Positions 1,874 through 19,771 of a DNA stretch of 41,035 nt are shown piece after piece. The position numbers and the translations under genes were made by a program. Numbering within the stretch: the first letter of the stretch is position 1; every line of letters begins with the position of its first letter. The notes beneath the pieces were generated by a model, which was not told the origin of the DNA, did not search any database, and was given only the letters and a program-made list of their open reading frames with translations. Source of the stretch: a virus (lineage: Duplodnaviria > Heunggongvirae > Uroviricota > Caudoviricetes); IMG/VR virus record IMGVR_UViG_2671181040_000013; one strand, written 5' to 3'.

Positions 1874-2070
1874 TACTGGCTGCGACATTTTTGAATAAAA
1901 GCGTCGATATTTCGGCGCTCATAACGAACTACTTTTGCACTGAAACGAATTGGTGCCAGGATAGCCCGATGACGATGCTTAATATTCCACTCACATAGCG
2001 TTTTCTGTGTAATACCTAACTTTTGGCATACTTCATCCGGGGTGAGTAAATCGTCGGGTTTCTCGCTCAT
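1870..2070 (-). CDS. xis: AlpA/Xis-like DNA-binding protein (putative excisionase)
   Basis: 66-aa basic protein with HTH-like segment (LTPDEVCQKLGITQKTLCEW); adjacent to int; 4-bp overlap with upstream helicase gene. Confidence 0.6.
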   Translation of the reverse strand: MSEKPDDLLTPDEVCQKLGITQKTLCEWNIKHRHRAILAPIRFSAKVVRYERRNIDAFIQKCRSQY

Positions 2071-3464
2071 GCTATACCTCTCTTTTTCATGGCATCGAGC
2101 AGGATGTCCTGCACTGTTCGTTTTGAGTTGCGCCGCTCCATCACCATTTCGTCCATAGTGTCGGCAGCAATAATGTGGTGAATAAATACCGGACGATTGT
2201 GTCCGGCCTGTATCTGTCTGGTTGGGCCGATACGTTCAATAATTTGCTGATATTGCTCCAGGTCCCACCAGTGTGAGAAAAATACCAGTATATTTCCGCC
2301 GTCCTGCATGTTCAGGCCGTGGCCCGCGCTGGCTGGGTGTGCAAAGAGAACAGGAATCTTTCCGGAATTCCAGTCGCGCAGTGTCTGTGGATCCTGGTCG
2401 AGGTGACGACCGCGAGGGAATGCTTTAAGCAAGCGTTCAAGATCGTGTTTCCAGTGATAAGCAACCAGCACAGGTGCGCCAGCTGCTTCGGTCAGTATGC
2501 TGTCCAGCGCCTGTAGTTTGGTGTCATGCAGTTCTGACCAACTTCCGGTGTCATCTGTGTATACTGCGCCGCTGGCGATTTGCAGACACTTCAGTGTCTT
2601 TGCCGCGGCGTTCGGTGCTTCGATGCCTTCGCCATTCAGCTCGAGGAACATTTCCTTTTCCATTTCACGATACTGCTGACGGGCCTTCGGTGGCATATCC
2701 ACGCGGATTACGTTATGGATGGGGTCTTTGATATCGAACCAGTCGGCCGCATCCAGCGAGAGGGTTACATCGGCTAACGCTCGCTGTATTTCACCCTGTG
2801 AGTGAGCAAAAGGCTCCAGTTTGGTCCAGCTCAGCCCCGGAAACTGTATCGAGTTGAACCAGCGTGAGGTAAACGCGCCGTAAGTGCGCCCGAGACGTTG
2901 CCCCTGGTCCACAAACCACGATTGTCCCCACAAATCTACCAGGCCGTTCGGTGCTGGCGTACCGGTGAGATTTATCCAGCGCCGGACATACTTATGCGCC
3001 ACTTTGCCCAGCGCCGCCGCGCGCTTACCACCACCTCGCAGCCGGAAGGATTTTAGCCGGGTGCTTTCATCTGGAATGACAATACCGAACGGCCATCGTT
3101 CTCCCAATTCTTCAACCAGCCAGACAAGGTTATCGTAGTTGATGGTGAACACGCTTGCGTTGCTGTTCGCCAGCGCCGTAGAGCGCGCTTTGGCATTACC
3201 AACAATCGGCTGCACCTCGATATTGCGCAAATGCCCCCACTTCACTGCTTCATCCGGCCAGGTGTTTGCTGCAACACGTAGCGGCGCGAGGACCAGTGCG
3301 GGGCGTGTTTCTGCCCCTGCCATAAAAAGATCTTCCAGCGCAGTGAGCGTTGCCACGGTTTTACCCATTCCCATACCTGCCCAGATGTTGCAGCGCATAA
3401 TGTCGATTTGATGATTGATGATGAGATCTTGGTAGGGGTGAGGTGAAAATATAGCATAGTCCAT
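2067..3464 (-). CDS. SNF2/DEAD-like superfamily-2 helicase
   Basis: Walker A GMGMGKT and DExx box (IPDESTR) visible in the 465-aa translation. Confidence 0.8.
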   Translation of the reverse strand: MDYAIFSPHPYQDLIINHQIDIMRCNIWAGMGMGKTVATLTALEDLFMAGAETRPALVLAPLRVAANTWPDEAVKWGHLRNIEVQPIVGNAKARSTALANSNASVFTINYDNLVWLVEELGERWPFGIVIPDESTRLKSFRLRGGGKRAAALGKVAHKYVRRWINLTGTPAPNGLVDLWGQSWFVDQGQRLGRTYGAFTSRWFNSIQFPGLSWTKLEPFAHSQGEIQRALADVTLSLDAADWFDIKDPIHNVIRVDMPPKARQQYREMEKEMFLELNGEGIEAPNAAAKTLKCLQIASGAVYTDDTGSWSELHDTKLQALDSILTEAAGAPVLVAYHWKHDLERLLKAFPRGRHLDQDPQTLRDWNSGKIPVLFAHPASAGHGLNMQDGGNILVFFSHWWDLEQYQQIIERIGPTRQIQAGHNRPVFIHHIIAADTMDEMVMERRNSKRTVQDILLDAMKKRGIA

Positions 3465-3531
3465 GGTATTGTATCTCCATGAATGAACTTATGTAGTAAT
3501 AGCTTAATTATTTATTTCGAAAGGAACAGTT

Positions 3532-4410
3532 ATGACCTCAGCTTATACAGATGTCCAGCAAGAAGAAAATATTACTGATAAATTAGTTGTTAAATATGAT
3601 GGTCCCGCACTAGCAGATCATAAAATAGATTTGGATGTTTTAACTGAGTCATTGAATGGACTAAACAACTTGCTTAAAGAAGTTAATTTGGTTGTCAATG
3701 GCACTAGTGAGTGTATTAATGTTGAGGTTGAGCCTTTTAAGGAAGGCTCATTTGAGTATTTGATTGATGTTATTCAAAATCCACTTGACCATTTGAATAT
3801 ATTAAGCATTATTGGGCTTGGAGGTACAACTGCACTCGCAGCAGGAAATACTCTCATTGACTTAATTCGTCAGATCAATGGTAGGCAAATAAAACGGTTG
3901 ACTTTAACAGCGGAAGGAGACTGTAAAATAGTTATGGATGATGGTGAGGAAATTATAGCCCCGTCATATTTCCGGCCTTTACTTGCCTCACCAAGCATAC
4001 GCAAATCCTTATCGAAGTTAATTCATAATCCTTTGCAAAAGGAAGGATACGAATCGCTTAAAATTTCAACTCAACAGGGGGTTGAGCTGATTAAGGTGCA
4101 CGAAGATAATATTGAACCGTTCAGATATAGGCGCGTTCCTGTAGTGCAGTCCTTGTCTGAAAGGGTGATTGAAGAGGCTCTAATCACATTTTTGACTATT
4201 CATAAGGATAAAAACACAGGCTGGCGAGTCAACTATGGCGATGACACAATCAGCGTGTCTATAGAAGATACTGAGTTCTTACAACGTGTTAGTACGGGAA
4301 GAGAACCTGGTGTTTTTAGTGATGCTTACTGCGTTGATTTGCTCGTCCGTGAGAACTTGAATTCGCTGGACAAAACGTACATAGTTGTTAAAGTACACGG
4401 CATCTTATAG
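3532..4410 (+). CDS. Hypothetical 292-aa soluble protein, first gene of accessory cassette
   Basis: ATG preceded by AAAGGAA; AT-rich by eye; opposite strand to flanking replication genes; no recognisable motif. Confidence 0.7.
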   Translation: MTSAYTDVQQEENITDKLVVKYDGPALADHKIDLDVLTESLNGLNNLLKEVNLVVNGTSECINVEVEPFKEGSFEYLIDVIQNPLDHLNILSIIGLGGTTALAAGNTLIDLIRQINGRQIKRLTLTAEGDCKIVMDDGEEIIAPSYFRPLLASPSIRKSLSKLIHNPLQKEGYESLKISTQQGVELIKVHEDNIEPFRYRRVPVVQSLSERVIEEALITFLTIHKDKNTGWRVNYGDDTISVSIEDTEFLQRVSTGREPGVFSDAYCVDLLVRENLNSLDKTYIVVKVHGIL

Positions 4411-4433
4411 TAGATTCACATGGGGAGGGGGCT

Positions 4434-4682
4434 ATGATTGCTTTTGCTTTTTGGCTGGCTTTTTTTAGCCTGCTTCCCGTACTATATTGGGTTCTTAAGA
4501 TGGGGTTTGACCGGTTACGCTTTGCGCTTATGCCTAAACATCATCTTGTTCTTGAATGTGTTGACTCAGAAGGAGTTGTCCGTCGCGATGTCGTTGATGT
4601 CTCTTCTGATGATGAATTTTACAAAATTGCAATGAATGCCATTCGTGCTGGAAGATCAGTCAAAGGAGGGACGTTTGAGTAG
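4434..4682 (+). CDS. Hypothetical 82-aa protein with one N-terminal transmembrane helix, second gene of cassette
   Basis: GGAGG 6 nt upstream of ATG 4434; hydrophobic N-terminus (IAFAFWLAFFSLLPVLYWVL) then charged soluble tail. Confidence 0.55.
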   Translation: MIAFAFWLAFFSLLPVLYWVLKMGFDRLRFALMPKHHLVLECVDSEGVVRRDVVDVSSDDEFYKIAMNAIRAGRSVKGGTFE

Positions 4683-5205
4683 CGCTTCTAAACCTGATAG
4701 CTACGAAAAAGTCCCTCTGATTTCTAATGTTGCTGCTGGTGGCATCACTGGTTTTTTAACATTACTGGTGTCCTCGTGGGACGGTCGTTTTCCGTATATT
4801 GGTTCTGATTTAAATACAATAAAGCCATTTCTTTTATTAATGCTTCCCAGTTGCGCTATGTTTCTGGCGCATTGGATAAAGTCGATTGGGTTTAAATGGT
4901 CCTTAGGTAGCGTTAATCGACAGTTATTAAGCATTAATAAGAAGAAAGAAAAAGAACTTCGCCGTGATATTGAAAAGTACAAAAATGTTATTTCTAATGA
5001 AAAGATAGAGGACTTTAAAAGTCAACTTGAACAAGTATTACAAGATCGTCATGATATTATTTCTAATAATTACGCACAGAAACTAAGAGAAAGAAATTAT
5101 ACGCAAGAAAAATATCATGAGCATAAACAAACCGCTGCAAATGATAATATTGAGCTGCAAAGCATACTGGAGAATCAGAAGTTCAATCAAAAAGGCATTG
5201 ACTAA
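4636..5205 (+). CDS. Hypothetical membrane protein (two predicted TM helices plus charged coiled-coil C-terminus), third gene of cassette
   Basis: ORF frame open from ATG 4636; more likely start is TTG 4675 preceded by AGGAGG (4664-4669), overlapping the stop of the previous gene; TM segments VAAGGITGFLTLLVSSW and FLLLMLPSCAMFLAHWI. Confidence 0.6.
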   Translation: MPFVLEDQSKEGRLSSASKPDSYEKVPLISNVAAGGITGFLTLLVSSWDGRFPYIGSDLNTIKPFLLLMLPSCAMFLAHWIKSIGFKWSLGSVNRQLLSINKKKEKELRRDIEKYKNVISNEKIEDFKSQLEQVLQDRHDIISNNYAQKLRERNYTQEKYHEHKQTAANDNIELQSILENQKFNQKGID

Positions 5206-5209
5206 ATTT

Positions 5210-5479
5210 TTATAATATCCTCTCTAGGTTCTTGCTATCCAGCACCACTACGGTAAAGCCCAGTTTTCGCAGACGTTCATGTTCGCGCAATTGGTCAGGC
5301 CGTGGTGGCTTGCCGGGAGATTTACATTCAACGAAAACGATACGACCACCTGGTAGCAGGACAATGCGATCCGGTACCGAGCGGTGACCGGGAGATACAA
5401 ACTTAAAGGCCACTCCGCCAGCTTTTTTCACTTCAGCGACGAGGTGCTTTTCGATAAGGCTTTCACGTTCATAGGCCAT
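5210..5479 (-). CDS. VRR-NUC domain nuclease
   Basis: About 89 aa with acidic/Lys residues in a PD-(D/E)XK-like arrangement (VPDRIVLL...VFVECKSPG); typical size and context; start chosen at MAYERES. Confidence 0.7.
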   Translation of the reverse strand: MAYERESLIEKHLVAEVKKAGGVAFKFVSPGHRSVPDRIVLLPGGRIVFVECKSPGKPPRPDQLREHERLRKLGFTVVVLDSKNLERIL

Positions 5480-5768: not shown

Positions 5769-5980
5769 TCTTCGACCGCCTTACGCTTTTCACGCATATT
5801 CTGCATCAGGCAAAAATCAGATCTGCGTTCACTCCATTCCTGATTCAGTTCGTGATGTGATTCGCGGTTGGCTTTTGCCCAGACCTTCGCTGCCCGGTCA
5901 TATTCGCCGGATTGTTCAAGTCGCAAAGCCTCCCTTGCAGCCCTGTAATAAAGTGGATTGTCCCGGTATTTAAATGACAT
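5765..5980 (-). CDS. Hypothetical 71-aa protein
   Basis: ORF with AAGGAT RBS, overlapping neighbours in operon fashion. Confidence 0.5.
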   Translation of the reverse strand: MSFKYRDNPLYYRAAREALRLEQSGEYDRAAKVWAKANRESHHELNQEWSERRSDFCLMQNMREKRKAVEE

Positions 5981-5985
5981 AGGAG

Positions 5986-8049
5986 TTAATCCTTACGGTA
6001 GTGGTACGCCTCAAAACCGCCAGCGTTCAGTGGGATATCGGGCGCCCATTCGGGGTCAGTGGAGAGAAGCGCGGAAAGCGCTTTATCGTTGAAATCTTCT
6101 GTGTCAGGTGCTTCGGTGATCACCTCGTCGTGTACCGTCAGCACAATGCTGTAACCGGCATCTTCGATAAGCGGCATGTTTCCGGCCAGAATGTCGCGGG
6201 CGGCCGCCTGGGTGATGTTCTCCACCAGCTTTCCGCCGTAGGTTTTGAGTCGTTGCCATTTACGCGAATAAGAGTTAACCCCCATGTAGGTGATATTCCC
6301 TTTTTCGATAACCGGAGACGGGTAGCATACAGCGCGTCCGGATGGTAGCTGTATGCGCAGCCACGCGCCATCGCGGCGGATTTTAAGATAACCGCAATAC
6401 AATGTTTTTTGCGGTGTGGCGATTGCAGTGCGGACGGTGCGCTCCAGTTCGTACCAGAAATCACAGGTCGCGGGATGCGCCCGGCGCCAGAGACGTTTAA
6501 GTGAGTCGCAGGCGATAAATACCCGTTCAGAAAGCCCGTAGGTTGACTTGCGTTTAACCGATTCGTCGTACCAGCTTTTTGCCTCGCGGATAACATCGCG
6601 GGGAATGTTTGGTAGTGCGGCGTTCGCCAGCTCGTCGAGATCGAGACCGTAAACCAGTGCAAAAGTGATGAAGGCCGACACACCACCACCATAACCCAGA
6701 CCGAGTTCCATGACTTTACCGATCTGACGCATGTGTTTATCAACATCATCTGGTGCAATATCGAAAGCTTTTGCATACGCCAGTTTATATAAGTCCGGAC
6801 CCGTTCCGGCGTCGTACTCTCTGAATGCATTCAGTTTCCATTCTTCTCCCGCCAGCCATGCCAGCATACGGCCTTCAATGTTCGACAAGTCACTTACCAC
6901 CAGCTTTTTGCCTGTTGGCGCGATAATGCAGCCACGTAACGCTGAACTGGTTAGTTCCATGATATTGTCAAACAGCAGGTCTGCACATCCGGCTTTCAGT
7001 GCTTCGATGCCTTCGTCTATTTGTTCCTGTTTTAGTGAAGGGCGGGGAAGGTTCTGGGGCTGGAATAGCCGTCCGGCCCAACGACCGGTACGTGACGCCC
7101 CGCAGAACTGTAGCGTACCGCGTAAGCGCCCGTCGTGGCTTACGCCTTTCATCAGTGCCTTGTATTTACTGGTGCTGGTAGTACTGGCCTGCAGGCGGAT
7201 AGCCAGCAGTTCTTTCACGGCAGATGGTAAATCGGGGTCGGCAATACGACGTTCCAGAGTACTGCGTTGCATGTCCGGTAGCTCCACACCGTAGGATTCA
7301 ACAATGTGCTTAATCAACGCGTCCCGTTGTGTGGCTGCCTGCACTTCGCCATCAGTCATTTCCTGTGTACGCTTTGCCAGGCGCTTTTGCTCCTGGTCTA
7401 CCGCTTCGATCGCAGCGCGCGCGAGTTGCATGTCCATGCAGACGCCCCGGTCGTTGATCTGCTGATCACGATGCCAGAGCGCCAGCTCTGTCCCCTGATA
7501 ATTCCACTTCGGCAGACGTTTATAGACTTCGCGCATTGCCTCGATATCCAGTCCGGCGTAAGCAACAAAGCGCCGCCATTCTTCCGGGTGGGTTTTACTG
7601 GTGGCCCGACGCAGTTTGCTGTTTTTTGGGCGTGGCTTACAGAACAGCTGGATCAGCGCTTTACCTTCTTTGTCCTTCGCTTTGTCTTGCGGGACGCCTA
7701 GTACTTCGCAGAGTTCCCCCAGAGACCCCGGGAGACCGTGCGCCAGCGCCTGCACCATCGTGTCGCGCCAACGTTCGACTGGCGGTGCCAGTCGCGGCAT
7801 TGCATAACGCAGGACGGTGCGGTCGAAGTGAGAGTTATGAAAATAAAGCAGGGTTTCAGGGGCTGCGATTGCTTCGTATAAGCCGTGTGGAATACCACTA
7901 CCGGCAGTGATATCCCACACGTTTACGGGCCCGTCGTTGATAGCCCATGCGAACAGCATCACTTCAACGCCTTCGGCATACGCATGGGTACCGTTCGTAA
8001 TAGGGATTTCGCAATAGGTTTCTAGGTCACCCCATAGTATATTGGACAT
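5986..8049 (-). CDS. Family A DNA polymerase with 3'-5' exonuclease domain
   Basis: Exo motif DLETY near N-terminus; polymerase motifs ([25 protein letters not shown]) in the 687-aa translation. Confidence 0.9.
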
Positions 8050-8105: not shown

Positions 8106-8375
8106 GTGTTTAGCTTTGGTATCGGAATACTTTCATTGATAGGTATTATTGCTTTCCCCATTCTTTATATTTTAGGGAGAATAGTTCGGGCTGGTGGCGC
8201 ATGGCTCGAACGTGAAGAAGGTCCTAAGGATCGTGTTCTTCCCAAAATTATAATTTTTGCGCTTATTGGGTTCTTTCTTGGGTGTTTGGCTCAGCCTGTA
8301 TGGGACAGCATTTCGGCATGTAGAGACTATGGCAATCCAATAGGGAAATGTCTTTTTAAATTCAATGAATTTTAA
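8106..8375 (+). CDS. Small (89 aa) two-TM membrane protein, accessory gene
   Basis: GTG start with AAGGAGA RBS; two hydrophobic helices; AT-rich; opposite orientation to flanking early genes; hairpin 8392-8427 downstream. Confidence 0.55.
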   Translation: MFSFGIGILSLIGIIAFPILYILGRIVRAGGAWLEREEGPKDRVLPKIIIFALIGFFLGCLAQPVWDSISACRDYGNPIGKCLFKFNEF

Positions 8376-13763: not shown

Positions 13764-16028
13764 ATGTCTGATAACAAACCATGGGGAGCTACGCCCGATG
13801 AATGGTTCCACTTCGATCTGGTGTTGGGGATGACAGACAGGCTTTTACCTGTGGTGTCCAATCCCTGTGCAGAACTGTCGCCTAATAGCAAGCTGTCTCA
13901 TAATTTCGGCAAAACACCCAGTCGCTACAATGGCCAACGTAAGGTTGTTGGTATCCCCGACTGGGCTAACTATGTTGTTACGGAAAACGATTTTGCCCGG
14001 TGGTCGAACGAACCCGATTACGGTATTTGCGTTCGTACTGGCGACGGGGTGGTGGCTCTGGACTGCGATATCAATGACGCCGGGATGCAGGAGATCGTAC
14101 GCAATATTATCCTGTCATGCCTGGGGGAACTTCCGCCACGTCGCTGGCGGGCTGACAGTCATAAATGCCTGTACCTGATTGCTGTTGATGGCGACTACCG
14201 TAAACGTGGTCACCGCCTGGAAGGCGAAAATAAACAAATAGAGCTGCTCGCTAAGGGCCAGCAGTTTGTGGCTTGTGGTACCCATCCGGCAGGCGAACGT
14301 ATTCAGTGGGACTGCGGTTTGCCCGGCGAACCTCTGAAAATTACATCTGAACAGCTCGAAAGCCTGTGGCAGCGCCTGGCGGATAACTTACCCGTGAAAG
14401 ACAGCTATACCGCAGGTGCGGGACGTCAGCGTGACCTTTCCTGTGTCGATCCTTCCGCGACAGATGATGTCGCCGACTGGCTTGACGCGAACGGGTGGAC
14501 TCTGTCGGTCAGCTCTGATGGTTCCCGCAATCTGAAACCGTTTCGGGATGAGTCAGAATACAGCAACGGTTGCAGCGAAACATCCATTAAGTATTTCCCA
14601 AAAGGGACGGGGGGATTTGAACAGGGACATTTTAAAAGCATGCACAACACCGATGCGGGGCTTACTGATGCCGACTGGCTGGAAGGCTACGGCTATACGC
14701 AATCTCTGTTCGAAGATCTCACGGTGGCTGAAGATGGCGATAAGCCTGAATTTACCGATATTAATACAGATATGACAGCCCATTTTCTGGAACGCTTTAT
14801 CTACGTCATCGAGGGTGACCAGGTATGTGATCTTAGCCGACCGCCATATCAGTGTATGATGGATATGAAGTCGTTCAAAAACCTGATGGCGCCTTACCAG
14901 TTCCCGCCAGAAGGGAAAGGACAACCAATTCCCGCAACCAAACGGTGGATAGAGCATCGGCATAAAAAGATTGCTGAGACGACAGGCTATAAGCCCGGTG
15001 CGGGACGTATTATCGAGCGTTTCGACGGGCGGTTTGAGATAAACGAATTTTATATGCCTGAGCATCCACGTACAGCGGATACAAGTAAGGTGTCCACGTT
15101 CCTTAATCATATGGCGTATCTGGTACCTGATGCCTGGCAGCGCGAGTTTTTCATCGCCCGTCTGGGGTGGATGGTTCAGCGTCCGGAGCGTCGATGCCCG
15201 ATTTCTATTCTGCATGTGGCTACCGCACATGGTACGGGCAGAGGATGGGTCAGCCAGTTAATGGAGCGCGTGCTTGGTCCGTGGAACTGTGCTCGTACTC
15301 GCATGAAGATCCTGTGCGATAACCAGTTCCATGACTATCTGTACAATACGCTTCTATGCACCATTGACGAGGTGCGCGAAAACGATAAGCGGTATGAGGT
15401 GAACGATAAGATCCGCGATGTGCTGACAGAACCACGGTTTGAAGTGAACCGCAAATATGGCAGCAAAAAAACGATGGATATATACACCGGCTTTCTGTTC
15501 TACACCAACCACTTTGATGCGCTGGCGCTGCCAGAGGAAGACAGACGTATCGCTGTGCTTGGTGGCCCTGACTTCGCCGCAACTGAAGAGCATTACGCCA
15601 GCCTGTACGGTGCGCTAAGCGACAGCGACTTTATCGCCCAGGTGTACTGGTATCTGATGGGCGTTGACCTGTCTCGCTTTAACTGGCAGCGCGCCCCCGA
15701 GACGAAAGAACGCCTTCTGATGATTGAAAGCAATAAGAGCGATGTGGAGGCTGCTCTTATTGAAATCCTGGATAATCCGCCTGTGCCAGCAATGACTTAT
15801 CAACAAATTGTTAACGCAATACTGGCAGAAGCAGGAATGGATGTAGAAATTAACCAGAAGCACATAACAAAGCTATTGCGAGAAAAAACAAAAAGGCAGC
15901 CAACAGATTTAGTAAAAATTGACGGAATGGGTTATCGCTTCTGGATACTTGCAAAAAATTGCGACTTCAATAATGAGGAATTGCGCGAAATATATAAAAC
16001 TTGCGAAATTTTGCAATCTGGATTGTAA
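13764..16028 (+). CDS. Phage DNA primase (prim-pol-like N-terminal domain, primase/helicase-like C-terminal region)
   Basis: 754-aa ORF after cro; acidic DxD-type motif (VALDCDINDAG); position and size typical of phage primases. Confidence 0.7.
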   Translation: MSDNKPWGATPDEWFHFDLVLGMTDRLLPVVSNPCAELSPNSKLSHNFGKTPSRYNGQRKVVGIPDWANYVVTENDFARWSNEPDYGICVRTGDGVVALDCDINDAGMQEIVRNIILSCLGELPPRRWRADSHKCLYLIAVDGDYRKRGHRLEGENKQIELLAKGQQFVACGTHPAGERIQWDCGLPGEPLKITSEQLESLWQRLADNLPVKDSYTAGAGRQRDLSCVDPSATDDVADWLDANGWTLSVSSDGSRNLKPFRDESEYSNGCSETSIKYFPKGTGGFEQGHFKSMHNTDAGLTDADWLEGYGYTQSLFEDLTVAEDGDKPEFTDINTDMTAHFLERFIYVIEGDQVCDLSRPPYQCMMDMKSFKNLMAPYQFPPEGKGQPIPATKRWIEHRHKKIAETTGYKPGAGRIIERFDGRFEINEFYMPEHPRTADTSKVSTFLNHMAYLVPDAWQREFFIARLGWMVQRPERRCPISILHVATAHGTGRGWVSQLMERVLGPWNCARTRMKILCDNQFHDYLYNTLLCTIDEVRENDKRYEVNDKIRDVLTEPRFEVNRKYGSKKTMDIYTGFLFYTNHFDALALPEEDRRIAVLGGPDFAATEEHYASLYGALSDSDFIAQVYWYLMGVDLSRFNWQRAPETKERLLMIESNKSDVEAALIEILDNPPVPAMTYQQIVNAILAEAGMDVEINQKHITKLLREKTKRQPTDLVKIDGMGYRFWILAKNCDFNNEELREIYKTCEILQSGL

Positions 16029-16031
16029 GAA

Positions 16032-16293
16032 GGTAACAGTAAGGTAACAGTAAAACGACTAACTGTTACCTTGAAAATATAAATAAATTCATATGGATAA
16101 CTAAAAAAGGTAACAGGTAACAGTAGTATTTAATTTATATATGCGAGACTTTATATTATACGTGCTATACCTGCACATATGTATATAGAACTAAAAGCAA
16201 CTGTTACCTGTTACCCAAAACGGGGTTAAGCCTTATGTGGCGCGCCCTACAGGAGGTAACAGTTAGCTATTTATCTGTTACCTTACTGTTACC
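16032..16293. repeat. Iteron array: 10 copies of GGTAACAG/CTGTTACC around an AT-rich core (candidate origin)
   Basis: GGTAACAG at 16032, 16043, 16109, 16116, 16255; CTGTTACC at 16063, 16201, 16208, 16275, 16286; AT-rich stretch 16124-16200. Confidence 0.6.
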
Positions 16294-16344
16294 TCAACAA
16301 TAAACTTGCAGAAAACTGCAAATAGCTAAGTGGAGTAAACAAAC

Positions 16345-16764
16345 ATGCAAAAAATACAAGTTTCAAAAATGATAGAAAATGAAACAGCGGAACCGGGAGA
16401 AGCATCCACGGCCATACGTTCAGTGGAAGCCGAGACAACCCGAAGGTTTTGGGTCGTAGAGCCCATTATTGACAGGGATCAGACTCCCGCAGGTGAGGTT
16501 TTTTGGTTCCGCAGGGTGATTGCCTGGGCTGTTGTTCTTGAGCAACTGGAGGGTTTCTCACCGGTTTCTGCGGTACGTCCGCTTGCTCTGGATAGCGATC
16601 TGGGTCAACTGGAGGTTTCCCACGGCAACGTTGTTGAGCTGGAAGATATTCCAAAGGGCGCGACACACACTTCCCCGGAGAAAATAGCATCTCGCAAACT
16701 GCCTGATGGGTTAGAGATGTCGTTAGACCTTGTGGTAAACGAGTTCTTCTTCCCTGTTGGGTGA
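16345..16764 (+). CDS. Hypothetical acidic protein (139 aa)
   Basis: ORF with GGAG RBS between iteron region and Q-like gene. Confidence 0.55.
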   Translation: MQKIQVSKMIENETAEPGEASTAIRSVEAETTRRFWVVEPIIDRDQTPAGEVFWFRRVIAWAVVLEQLEGFSPVSAVRPLALDSDLGQLEVSHGNVVELEDIPKGATHTSPEKIASRKLPDGLEMSLDLVVNEFFFPVG

Positions 16765-17545: not shown

Positions 17546-17645
17546 TATTCAGGGCCCACCGAAGGACGGCTCATAACCCAATCCTACGGGCGTATACGCA
17601 GGGCCCGCCTTTCAACAACACCCCGTAATGGCGGAGGTGGGAAGT

Positions 17646-17987
17646 ATGAAAATGCACAATGCTCCTCATTCCTGGCCTGACTTACTGGAACTCTTACAAA
17701 GTTGGTGGCGTGGAGACACACCGCTGGGCGCAGTGATTATGTCGATCGTTATGGCTGGTTTGCGCATCGCCTATTTTGGCGGTGGTGGTGGCTGGAAGCG
17801 AAAAACGCTCGAGATTTTGCTATGTGGTGCTCTGACGCTGACCTTTGCATCCGCTCTTGAGTATGTCGGATGGCCTAAATCGCTTTCTGTTGCCATTGGT
17901 GGTGGCGTGGGGCTGATCGGTGTCGATGCTATTCGTGGGGCTGCAATGCGAGTAATCGGTAACAAATTTGGTAGATCGAAGGAGTAA
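17646..17987 (+). CDS. Holin with dual-start (MKM) motif
   Basis: GGAGG RBS; N-terminus MKMHN; hydrophobic segments; immediately upstream of endolysin. Confidence 0.7.
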   Translation: MKMHNAPHSWPDLLELLQSWWRGDTPLGAVIMSIVMAGLRIAYFGGGGGWKRKTLEILLCGALTLTFASALEYVGWPKSLSVAIGGGVGLIGVDAIRGAAMRVIGNKFGRSKE

Positions 17988-18467: not shown

Positions 18468-18925
18468 GCAGAGTCACCGCGATTATCTCCGCTTTGGTTA
18501 TCTGCATCATCGTCTGCCTGTCATGGGCTGTTAATCATTACCGTGATAACGCCATTACCTACAAAGCCCAGCGCGACAAAAATGCCAGAGAACTGAAGCT
18601 GGCGAACGCGGCAATTACTGACATGCAGCAGCGCCAGCGTGATGCTGATGCACTCGATGCTAAATACACCGGAGAACTAGCTGATGCGAAAAAGCAGCTT
18701 GATGATCTGCAGCGTTGTGTTCGCACTGGCAAGTGTGGGCTGCACTTCAATGCCCGATGTCCAGCGAGCGGAAAGACCGGCACCGGCAGCTTGGGCGATG
18801 CTTCCAGCCCCGGACTTACTGACTCCGCTGAACGGGATTATTTCACCCTCAGAGAGCGAATCGTCACAGTGACGAAGCAGGTCGGCTACTTGCAGGACTA
18901 CATCAAAGAGCAGTGTTCAAATTAG
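18464..18925 (+). CDS. Rz: i-spanin Rz
   Basis: N-terminus [55 protein letters not shown] matches lambda Rz from memory. Confidence 0.9.
18684..18872 (+). CDS. Rz1: o-spanin Rz1 lipoprotein, embedded in +1 frame within Rz
   Basis: 62-aa ORF fully inside Rz; lipobox-like SVGC; proline-rich; C-terminal [11 protein letters not shown] as in lambda Rz1. Confidence 0.8.
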
Positions 18926-18983
18926 TGTTAATGAAGAATTTTAAGGGTAATATTATCTCTATTTCTCAGGATGGAGGTAATTT

Positions 18984-19391
18984 ATGCAGACCGATCTGGA
19001 ATACTTGAAGGGAATGTTAGGGGTCTTTATTAAGGCTGGCGGACCATTGATATCAGCTAATGACCTTAAAAAAGCTGGATACGAAATAAGCAGCGATAAA
19101 GGACTCTTTCATTACTACCAATTGATTGAGAGAGGTTATATCAGTAACCATTTTCTAGAAATAGGCGATCCTAAGAAATTAGGACTTACTATTGGGCTTA
19201 ATGAAATCCGTGAATGGCCAGCCAATGTAAGACTCACGTCATCAGGCCAAGAGTTTGCAGAAACCCTTCAACAAAAGGATGTTTTTGAGAAGCTAAAAAC
19301 AATTAGCGATCAACCATTATCGGTATTGAAAGATGTTGGTGTAGAGCTTCTAAAATCCTACGCAAAAAAGAAATTTGGTCTTTCAGATTAA
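18984..19391 (+). CDS. Hypothetical 135-aa protein, accessory gene after lysis cassette
   Basis: Strong GGAGG RBS; AT-rich; occupies the lysis-terminase position where lambda carries bor. Confidence 0.65.
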   Translation: MQTDLEYLKGMLGVFIKAGGPLISANDLKKAGYEISSDKGLFHYYQLIERGYISNHFLEIGDPKKLGLTIGLNEIREWPANVRLTSSGQEFAETLQQKDVFEKLKTISDQPLSVLKDVGVELLKSYAKKKFGLSD

Positions 19392-19771
19392 CTGCCTATG
19401 GGCGGTTTTTATTGCCATTACGATGATTCTCCCCATTGTGATGGCAGTATCCCCTACAGAGGATAATTAACCATATATCCCCACAAGCAGATAAAGAGGC
19501 TCTCAATGTCCGACATCTACCAAACCCAAACAGGCGAAACCTTTACGGGCAAGACGTCACGACGTCAGCCTGAGCTGGTTAATGGCTTTATGCAGCTGGC
19601 TACCGAGACGGGCGAGTAAATAACTCCATTAGGAGAATGTGGAACCATTACACTTTGAGCCGTTAACTGATATTGATAAAGGTAAATAATATCCTGGTTA
19701 AGGTTTTCTAATAGCCAGCCATTTGCAAAATCACAGTTACAGCAGCAGCGAAAGCTGCATATGAGTTATAT

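Follow-up and report, generated by a model that had tools for sequence, protein, structure and literature searches.

What are three AT-rich genes doing on the opposite strand of a prophage replication operon? We addressed this question for IMG/VR virus record IMGVR_UViG_2671181040_000013 (Caudoviricetes), a stretch of 41,035 nucleotides hereafter called the window, in which genes A, B and C, together the cassette, interrupt the early replication genes between positions 3,465 and 5,209. A first-pass annotation, made from the letters alone, had proposed that they form an undescribed defence or exclusion system. Our analysis makes it probable that the cassette is an anti-phage defence or exclusion operon of the prophage, a three-protein gammaproteobacterial variant of the gp29-gp30 type described for mycobacteriophage MichelleMyBell. 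The word undescribed stood only in part: judged by sequence comparison, A belongs to a family that was already known (PDC-S42, NF053583 and gp29 homologues), and the partner set of B and C is what is new here.

Protein A is a homologue of MichelleMyBell gp29

Protein A matched the PADLOC candidate PDC-S42 (PDLC05015) over residues 17-288 of its 292 (6.1e-40) and passed the NCBIfam model NF053583 (LAPAL_fam) with 193.7 bits (E 4.5e-57, cutoff 60). The first-pass annotation had recognised neither a catalytic nor a family motif. No catalytic motif was found in A by us either, so that this half of the statement stood, whereas the family half was overturned by the NF053583 score. Pfam DUF7946 stayed below its gathering threshold of 27 with A (22.3 bits) and covered N-terminal residues 19-81 only; a precomputed match to this domain is present in some A homologues. 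A further match was to phrog_3243, function unknown.

The lead to gp29 was a tblastn match in a Vibrio prophage of 14 kb that is PM2-like (Vinavirales) and carries the depositor note 'MMB_gp29_gp30__gp29'. MichelleMyBell (KF986246) gp29, a protein of 310 aa, aligned with A in BLASTP over residues 9-288 at 26% identity (E 6e-12), and hhalign gave the pair a probability of 97.2%. A profile built from 65 sequences of the A family, from which gp29 was excluded, raised this to 98.7% (E 1.6e-16, 265 columns). In turn, gp29 passed NF053583 (181.4 bits, cutoff 60) and matched PDC-S42 (1.6e-16). On these alignments A is a full-length homologue of gp29, and because gp29 and A satisfy the same models, PDC-S42, NF053583 and gp29 represent one family. 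With matches of E up to 1e-3 counted, this family amounts to 1,461 clusters (50% identity); in nearly all of them the protein has 275-320 aa and is matched from end to end. No link between PDC-S42 and gp29 appears in the accessible sources, and the supplements of the PDC paper (bioRxiv 10.1101/2024.01.29.577857) hold no PDC-S42 entry.

Two observations concern the naming of these proteins. The full name of NF053583 is 'LAPAL motif-containing putative phage structural protein', and the newest PGAP annotation of E. coli JNEC-KY208 (H43) gives this label to an identical gene A. The DefenseFinder gp29-gp30 system is called 'a predicted (p)ppGpp synthetase' in PMC10482375. No RelA/SpoT-type Pfam match was found in MichelleMyBell gp29 (positions 4383-5315 of our locus L022), and the description fits Phrann gp29, which is another protein (PMC9262239); the Phrann and MichelleMyBell gp29 systems appear to have been conflated in the literature.

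The A-B-C trio in other genomes

Downstream of every A homologue with at least 33% identity, B-like and C-like genes followed directly (37 of 37 fetched loci). The B-like genes begin 9-48 nt after A and encode 78-89 aa with an N-terminal transmembrane (TM) helix. The C-like genes begin 4-20 nt before B ends and encode 157-176 aa, mostly with two TM helices; charged residues make up 31-41% of a tail of about 100 aa. These loci span tailed prophages, PM2-like prophages and islands of Escherichia, Klebsiella, Serratia, Pantoea, Aeromonas, Vibrio and Photobacterium.

The genetic surroundings of the trio vary widely. In lambdoid prophages of Klebsiella, E. coli and Citrobacter it follows int immediately, and in Serratia it is found directly after an S24 cI-like repressor gene, on the same strand, which is the position of rexAB. 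In Pantoea it sits within a myovirus baseplate block and in a Mu-like phage within the head gene block. Vibrio phage 10N.286.45.F8_PE001 (L021, PQ189332), a PM2-like temperate phage of 14 kb, carries it at 1276-2880, adjoining the integrase. Since PM2-like phages belong to the Vinavirales (Varidnaviria), the cassette moves across viral realms, and it has reached non-viral islands as well: in Aeromonas a mobilisable island that is not a phage carries the trio, with type I restriction-modification (RM), Fic and Mrr_N genes as neighbours. It is also present in Photobacterium. Throughout these contexts the GC content of the cassette was steady at 0.37-0.40, with flanks of 0.44-0.575, and the sequence upstream of A was not conserved.

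Relatives of A with at most 28% identity lacked B and C. Their genes were found directly after S24 repressors, or were separated by 4 nt from a preceding MmeI-type RM gene. At one distant, high-GC locus (L047) the A homologue follows an S24 repressor and is itself followed by a gene for a 142-aa predicted lipoprotein (6182-6610) that replaces B and C; it has a signal peptide with a Cys lipobox-like 'TTGC'. The A family may have envelope partners of a third class, represented by this lipoprotein.

Membrane proteins B and C

The first-pass annotation had described A as soluble, B as having one TM helix and C as having two TM helices and a charged coiled-coil tail. Hydropathy agreed with all three topologies. 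In C, a two-TM hairpin (residues 13-34 and 46-71) is followed by a proline-free tail of 105 aa, 35% of which is charged. The charge was thus confirmed and the coiled coil was not, heptad periodicity being non-significant in a crude test (period-3.5 power, p = 0.24). B carries behind its TM helix a conserved tail of about 56 aa with the motif VDVSSD-EFY-AM-AIRAG (alignment A1). By the positive-inside rule, the tails of both proteins are probably cytoplasmic.

B matched phrog_15510 and C phrog_15878, both of function unknown, and scans of the two proteins against Pfam, NCBIfam and PADLOC returned noise only. C resembles class II holins in topology only, with two TM helices and a charged C-terminal tail; neither B nor C matched a holin family of Pfam or PHROG, and a separate holin of the prophage is encoded at 17628-17987. 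The homologue search with B yielded just 5 close clusters, the word index limiting searches with a query of 82 aa. That with C returned Enterobacterales proteins only, and A and B stood upstream in every context examined.

A natural truncation of C was observed in E. coli O157:H16 Res13-Lact-PEA12-26 (L017, 8142-8423), where intact A and B are combined with a C of 93 aa, reduced to the TM hairpin and closely followed by IS66-family genes.

Structure of protein A

An AlphaFold2 model of A, computed from the 65-sequence alignment, reached a predicted local distance difference test (pLDDT) score of 89.9 and a predicted template modelling (pTM) score of 0.78. Its C-terminal 85 residues or so model as an OB fold. 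W231, D246 and F249, the sole invariant residues of the family, all lie in this domain. Residues 88-112, a moderately hydrophobic, Gly/Ala-rich segment around the conserved G95, were modelled with lower confidence. A sequence search with the A family gave no match among solved structures. Foldseek matches among viral models were to DNA ligases and LEF-3, in both cases to the OB domain, to a protein of Pipsqueaks, a cluster N phage, and to uncharacterised proteins. A broader alignment (A4) was too divergent for a locus scan.

Composition, selection and a cargo hotspot

With a GC content of 0.379, compared with a window mean of 0.494 (standard deviation 0.034), the cassette is the lowest-GC 1.7 kb of the 41 kb; only 0.06% of such stretches were equally low. 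GC at third codon positions was 0.31-0.35 in the cassette genes versus 0.58 in the helicase and 0.57 in the polymerase gene. Against alleles with 85-92% identity, dN/dS was 0.06 for A, 0.12 for B and 0.06 for C. Purifying selection is strong on each of A, B and C, and at such ratios they are therefore real, constrained genes.

The window represents a prophage of E. coli that is inserted beside yfhL; strain CREC-544 is 100% identical to it, and in IMG/VR it corresponds to contig UViG_2695420539_000015. Among 5,426 complete E. coli genomes, the flanking sequence was matched in 143, just 17 of which had the cassette; counting all alleles, the cassette was present in 19 of the 5,426. Homology with related prophages breaks at about 3434-3450 (against L002-L006) and at about 5207-5232 in blastn, and on the helicase side the flanks of sister prophages are 95-98% identical to the window. 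These breakpoints agree with the limits given by the first-pass annotation. Where the window has A, B and C, the sister prophage of E. coli CAU16175 (L003, 1766-2698) has BstA, a validated abortive-infection protein (310 aa, PADLOC 1.4e-115), another sister a 305-aa protein with a TIR-effector-like match, and others unknown proteins of 236 aa (L002, 1698-2408) and 206 aa (L004, 1728-2348). Rha and Arc regulators also occupy this slot in sister prophages. The junction between helicase and VRR-NUC is a cargo-swapping hotspot, and its unknown occupants are candidate defence genes. In two further prophages, L033 (91% nucleotide identity) and L034 (84%), the cassette lies at the same place and the divergence is uniform; it follows that one sub-lineage has had the cassette for a long time, while in others it is exchanged through recombination in the flanks.

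These results bear on several earlier statements. The AT-richness against GC-richer flanks was real, the suspected horizontal acquisition took the form of cassette exchange at a variable site, and comparison of the junction in related prophages, which had been proposed as a check, found it variable. The search for A in PADLOC, proposed likewise, led to PDC-S42. All comparative results pointed to a defence or exclusion role, as suggested at the time: the slot is shared with BstA and TIR-like cargo, and elsewhere the trio stands at moron and defence positions.

Gene layout in the prophage

The early operon on the minus strand comprises genes for a DNA polymerase, an ANR regulator, a DUF4406 protein, a VRR-NUC protein, an SNF2/DEAD helicase and a helix-turn-helix protein. 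The cassette lies between the VRR-NUC and helicase genes on the opposite strand (Table 1).

Table 1. Positions of the cassette and adjoining features in the window
Feature	Position	Strand	Description
SNF2/DEAD helicase gene	2067-3464	-	helicase domains in family scan
Hotspot left edge	3437..3464	-	sister-prophage homology stops within first helicase codons
Spacer between helicase start and gene A	3465..3531	+	67 bp, AT-rich, divergent; presumed promoter region
Gene A	3532..4410	+	292 aa, soluble, without hydrophobic segment (hydropathy)
A-B spacer	4411..4433	+	GGAGG Shine-Dalgarno ahead of 4434
Gene B	4434..4682	+	82 aa, single N-terminal TM helix (residues 1-26)
Gene C	4675..5205	+	176 aa from TTG 4675; alternative ATG 4636 gives 189 aa
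Hotspot right edge	5206..5232	-	blastn breakpoints 5207-5232

The first-pass annotation had been accurate on this layout. The three plus-strand open reading frames have the sizes and coordinates it gave, both possible starts of C included; the flanking helicase and VRR-NUC genes do lie on the minus strand, and the strong Shine-Dalgarno sequences are present ahead of B and C, that of C being AGGAGG, 5 nt ahead of TTG 4675. Gene A has the ribosome-binding site AAGGA 6 nt before its ATG, within the spacer that precedes it. The appearance of a single operon was borne out by an overlap of 8 nt between B and C, which suggests translational coupling of the two genes. Of the two starts of C, TTG 4675 is the better one, because PGAP uses it, because PHROG 15878 covers only residues 14-189 of the long form, and because in relatives C begins 4-20 nt before B ends.

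A consensus scan found no sigma-70 match in the spacer upstream of A, and the cassette promoter is for this reason inferred only. At the other end, the stop codon of C (5205) and the convergent stop of VRR-NUC (5210) are just 4 nt apart. The scan found no terminator-like site after C and none between the two stops.

Other variable or low-GC positions in the prophage

Between the genes for the ANR regulator and the DNA polymerase there is a second variable slot, which is empty in the window (equivalent position about 5980-5986) and holds a gene for a 253-aa TIR-domain protein in L004 (3261-4022) and L005 (3372-4133), with matches to PADLOC PDC-S35 (6.8e-109) and Pfam CAP12-PCTIR_TIR (2.9e-31). 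An 89-aa hydrophobic protein without family match is encoded at 8106-8375 (+) of the window, in a patch of low GC (0.39); its gene runs antisense and is flanked by those for the DNA polymerase and an Nmad5-family protein. Since L006 has an unrelated 199-aa protein at the equivalent position, this may be a third cargo slot.

Two more low-GC islands were seen in the window. The first, 15601-16550 (minimum GC 0.347), covers the 3' end of a Prim-Pol/DUF5906 gene and a 139-aa open reading frame (16345-16764) upstream of antiterminator Q; the second, 18851-19550 (minimum 0.382), contains a 135-aa open reading frame (18984-19391) that closely follows the holin-Rz lysis genes. Pfam gave no match for either of these two reading frames, and both stand at typical moron positions.

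Discussion

The most likely function of the cassette is abortive infection or exclusion with a membrane output. Protein A would be the cytoplasmic core, acting as sensor, effector or both, and its OB domain with W231, D246 and F249 would bind the trigger. B, with a single membrane pass and a cytoplasmic tail, and C, with a holin-like hairpin and a charged cytoplasmic tail, would be obligate membrane partners of A. In a lysogen, the operon would be expressed independently of the early replication operon and antisense to it. A would then sense infection by another phage, and the membrane output would abort it, either by permeabilisation or depolarisation through C or by release of a toxic activity of A. 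For the prophage's own lytic cycle we can only speculate: with a convergent end that has no terminator, the early lytic transcript would cross the cassette antisense, and this minus-strand transcription might silence it.

This interpretation is favoured by the homology of A to a protein of an experimentally reported defence, by the hotspot with its alternative cargo, by the strict synteny of A, B and C in unrelated contexts, by the places of distant A relatives behind S24 repressors or an MmeI-type RM gene, by the constant low GC and by the purifying selection on all three genes. Several observations weigh against it. NCBI labels the A family as a 'putative phage structural protein'. No mention of PDC-S42, DUF7946, the 'LAPAL motif' or the three RefSeq accessions turned up in the literature searched, and no proteobacterial phenotype is reported. 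The promoter and terminator scan of the window gave nothing convincing for the cassette, its counts being those expected from shuffled sequence. A simple model with a soluble sensor and a membrane effector does not sit easily with PMC11856565, in which gp29 is described as the toxic component and gp30 as a membrane protein. Finally, no similarity could be detected between gp30 and either B or C, and the partner logic may therefore differ from that in MichelleMyBell.

A more specific version is possible, although we regard it as doubtful: A, B and C might constitute a distinct three-component immune module coupled to the membrane, in which the OB fold of A recognises a product of phage replication and switches on a holin-like pore formed by C, with B as membrane adaptor. 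The ligand of A would be single-stranded DNA or a phage protein of the single-stranded DNA-binding or recombinase type. If true, this would provide a mechanism, and a model tractable in E. coli, for the 1,461-cluster family that includes PDC-S42 and gp29.

Envelope superinfection exclusion, with B and C organised by A and blocking DNA entry or an early envelope step, is in our opinion unlikely. Comparable exclusion systems are P22 SieA, T4 Imm and Sp, and mycobacteriophage Charlie gp32. Two of the three proteins are indeed small inner-membrane proteins, the cassette is prophage-borne and found at moron sites, and cluster N mycobacteriophages carry a single membrane protein of the exclusion type (PMC9262239). 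However, the homologous MichelleMyBell system is described as Abi-like (that is, resembling abortive infection), with adsorption and injection proceeding (PMC6426606), and the conserved core is the soluble A, which in distant relatives has no membrane partner.

A toxin-antidote module that stabilises the prophage or island, with a toxic A neutralised or sequestered by B and C and any anti-phage effect secondary, seems slightly less likely again. It would agree with the toxicity of gp29 in the absence of gp30, as described in PMC11856565, with the carriage of the cassette by many kinds of mobile element, and with the tight linkage of A, B and C and the coupling of B to C, which fit stoichiometric control. 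An effective addiction module should nevertheless not be so rare (19 of 5,426 E. coli genomes) nor so readily replaced by other cargo at the hotspot, and the truncation of C beside IS66 genes in L017 is tolerated with A intact. Many toxin-antitoxin modules are moreover abortive-infection defences, so that this explanation overlaps with the one we favour.

Morons at similar sites often encode host-fitness factors, and the cassette might by analogy serve the host in envelope stress tolerance, colonisation or serum resistance. We consider this improbable, A being homologous to a defence gene and the cassette co-localising with RM genes and repressors and sharing its slot with BstA and TIR cargo.

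A role of A in phage structure or morphogenesis, with B and C as accessory membrane proteins of virion assembly or lysis, is very improbable despite the NF053583 name, the baseplate (Pantoea) and head (Mu-like) contexts and the class II holin-like topology of C, because just 17 of the 143 flank-matching E. coli genomes have the cassette, which in the window is antisense, within the replication module and compositionally foreign; because the trio occurs on a non-phage mobilisable island and in both tailed (lambdoid, myovirus-type, Mu-like) and tailless PM2-like viruses, which have no virion parts in common; because B and C match no Pfam holin family; and because gp29 lies in the cluster N central region, whose genes are reported to be expressed in lysogeny and to confer defence (PMC6426596). 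This suggests that the 'structural' label is misleading, and that it will spread through RefSeq.

The cassette joins a PADLOC candidate, an NCBI 'structural' label and the experimentally reported gp29-gp30 defence in one family, and it widens the range of this family to the Gammaproteobacteria, from which surveys based on DefenseFinder had reported it absent. B and C are absent from the detection models, and the system is therefore missed or scored as a single gene. The E. coli version offers a tractable test case for the mechanism of this family, and the hotspot in yfhL-integrated prophages a site where BstA, TIR-like and unknown cargo are swapped.

Comparison with known systems

The closest known system is MichelleMyBell gp29-gp30 (MMB_gp29_gp30 in DefenseFinder; Dedrick et al. 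2017, as cited in PMC8549241, PMC6426606 and PMC11856565). According to PMC8549241 and PMC6426606, the MichelleMyBell prophage cuts the plating of phage Tweety by 4-5 logs in an Abi-like manner, and phage adsorption and injection proceed under this defence (PMC6426606). Tweety gp54 counters it, as stated in the same two sources and in PMC11856565. Both systems are prophage-borne and consist of a soluble protein of about 300 aa followed by small membrane protein genes, and A and gp29 fall into the same curated hidden Markov model families. The cassette, however, has three genes instead of two. The 67-aa gp30, whose gene begins before that of gp29 has ended, contains two hydrophobic segments; B, with one TM helix and a 56-aa tail, and C, with two TM helices and a charged tail of 105 aa, are unrelated to it. 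Lacking a gp30 homologue, the cassette falls outside the two-gene definition of the system. The hosts differ as well: gp29-gp30 was reported to be detected only in Actinobacteria (PMC10482375), whereas the cassette is found in Gammaproteobacteria.

PDC-S42 resembles the cassette in that A matches its model over the full length and in that relatives stand beside type I and MmeI RM genes; such RM contexts are among those from which PDCs were nominated by guilt-by-embedding (bioRxiv 10.1101/2024.01.29.577857). PDC-S42 is nevertheless a single-gene candidate, whereas A relatives of at least 33% identity carry two membrane-protein genes that PADLOC leaves unmodelled.

Lambda RexAB, Sbash gp30/gp31 and CarolAnn gp44/gp43 likewise combine a soluble protein with one or more membrane proteins and are expressed from the prophage, and a membrane-level abortive output is proposed for them (PMC6426596), as it is here. 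The Serratia trio, directly downstream of a cI-like repressor gene, even takes the place of rexAB. The first-pass annotation had offered RexAB as an analogy only, and an analogy it is. The number of TM helices is four in RexB and in Sbash gp31, one in B and two in C. We rejected A as RexA-like (hhalign probability against lambda RexA 0.2%; no Pfam DUF4747 match at E up to 1) and C as RexB-like, given that it has no similarity to RexB.

BstA, finally, is an unrelated single protein, to whose model A, B and C have no match. What it shares with the cassette is its role as prophage defence cargo, in the cassette a probable one, and, in L003, the identical slot between helicase and VRR-NUC.

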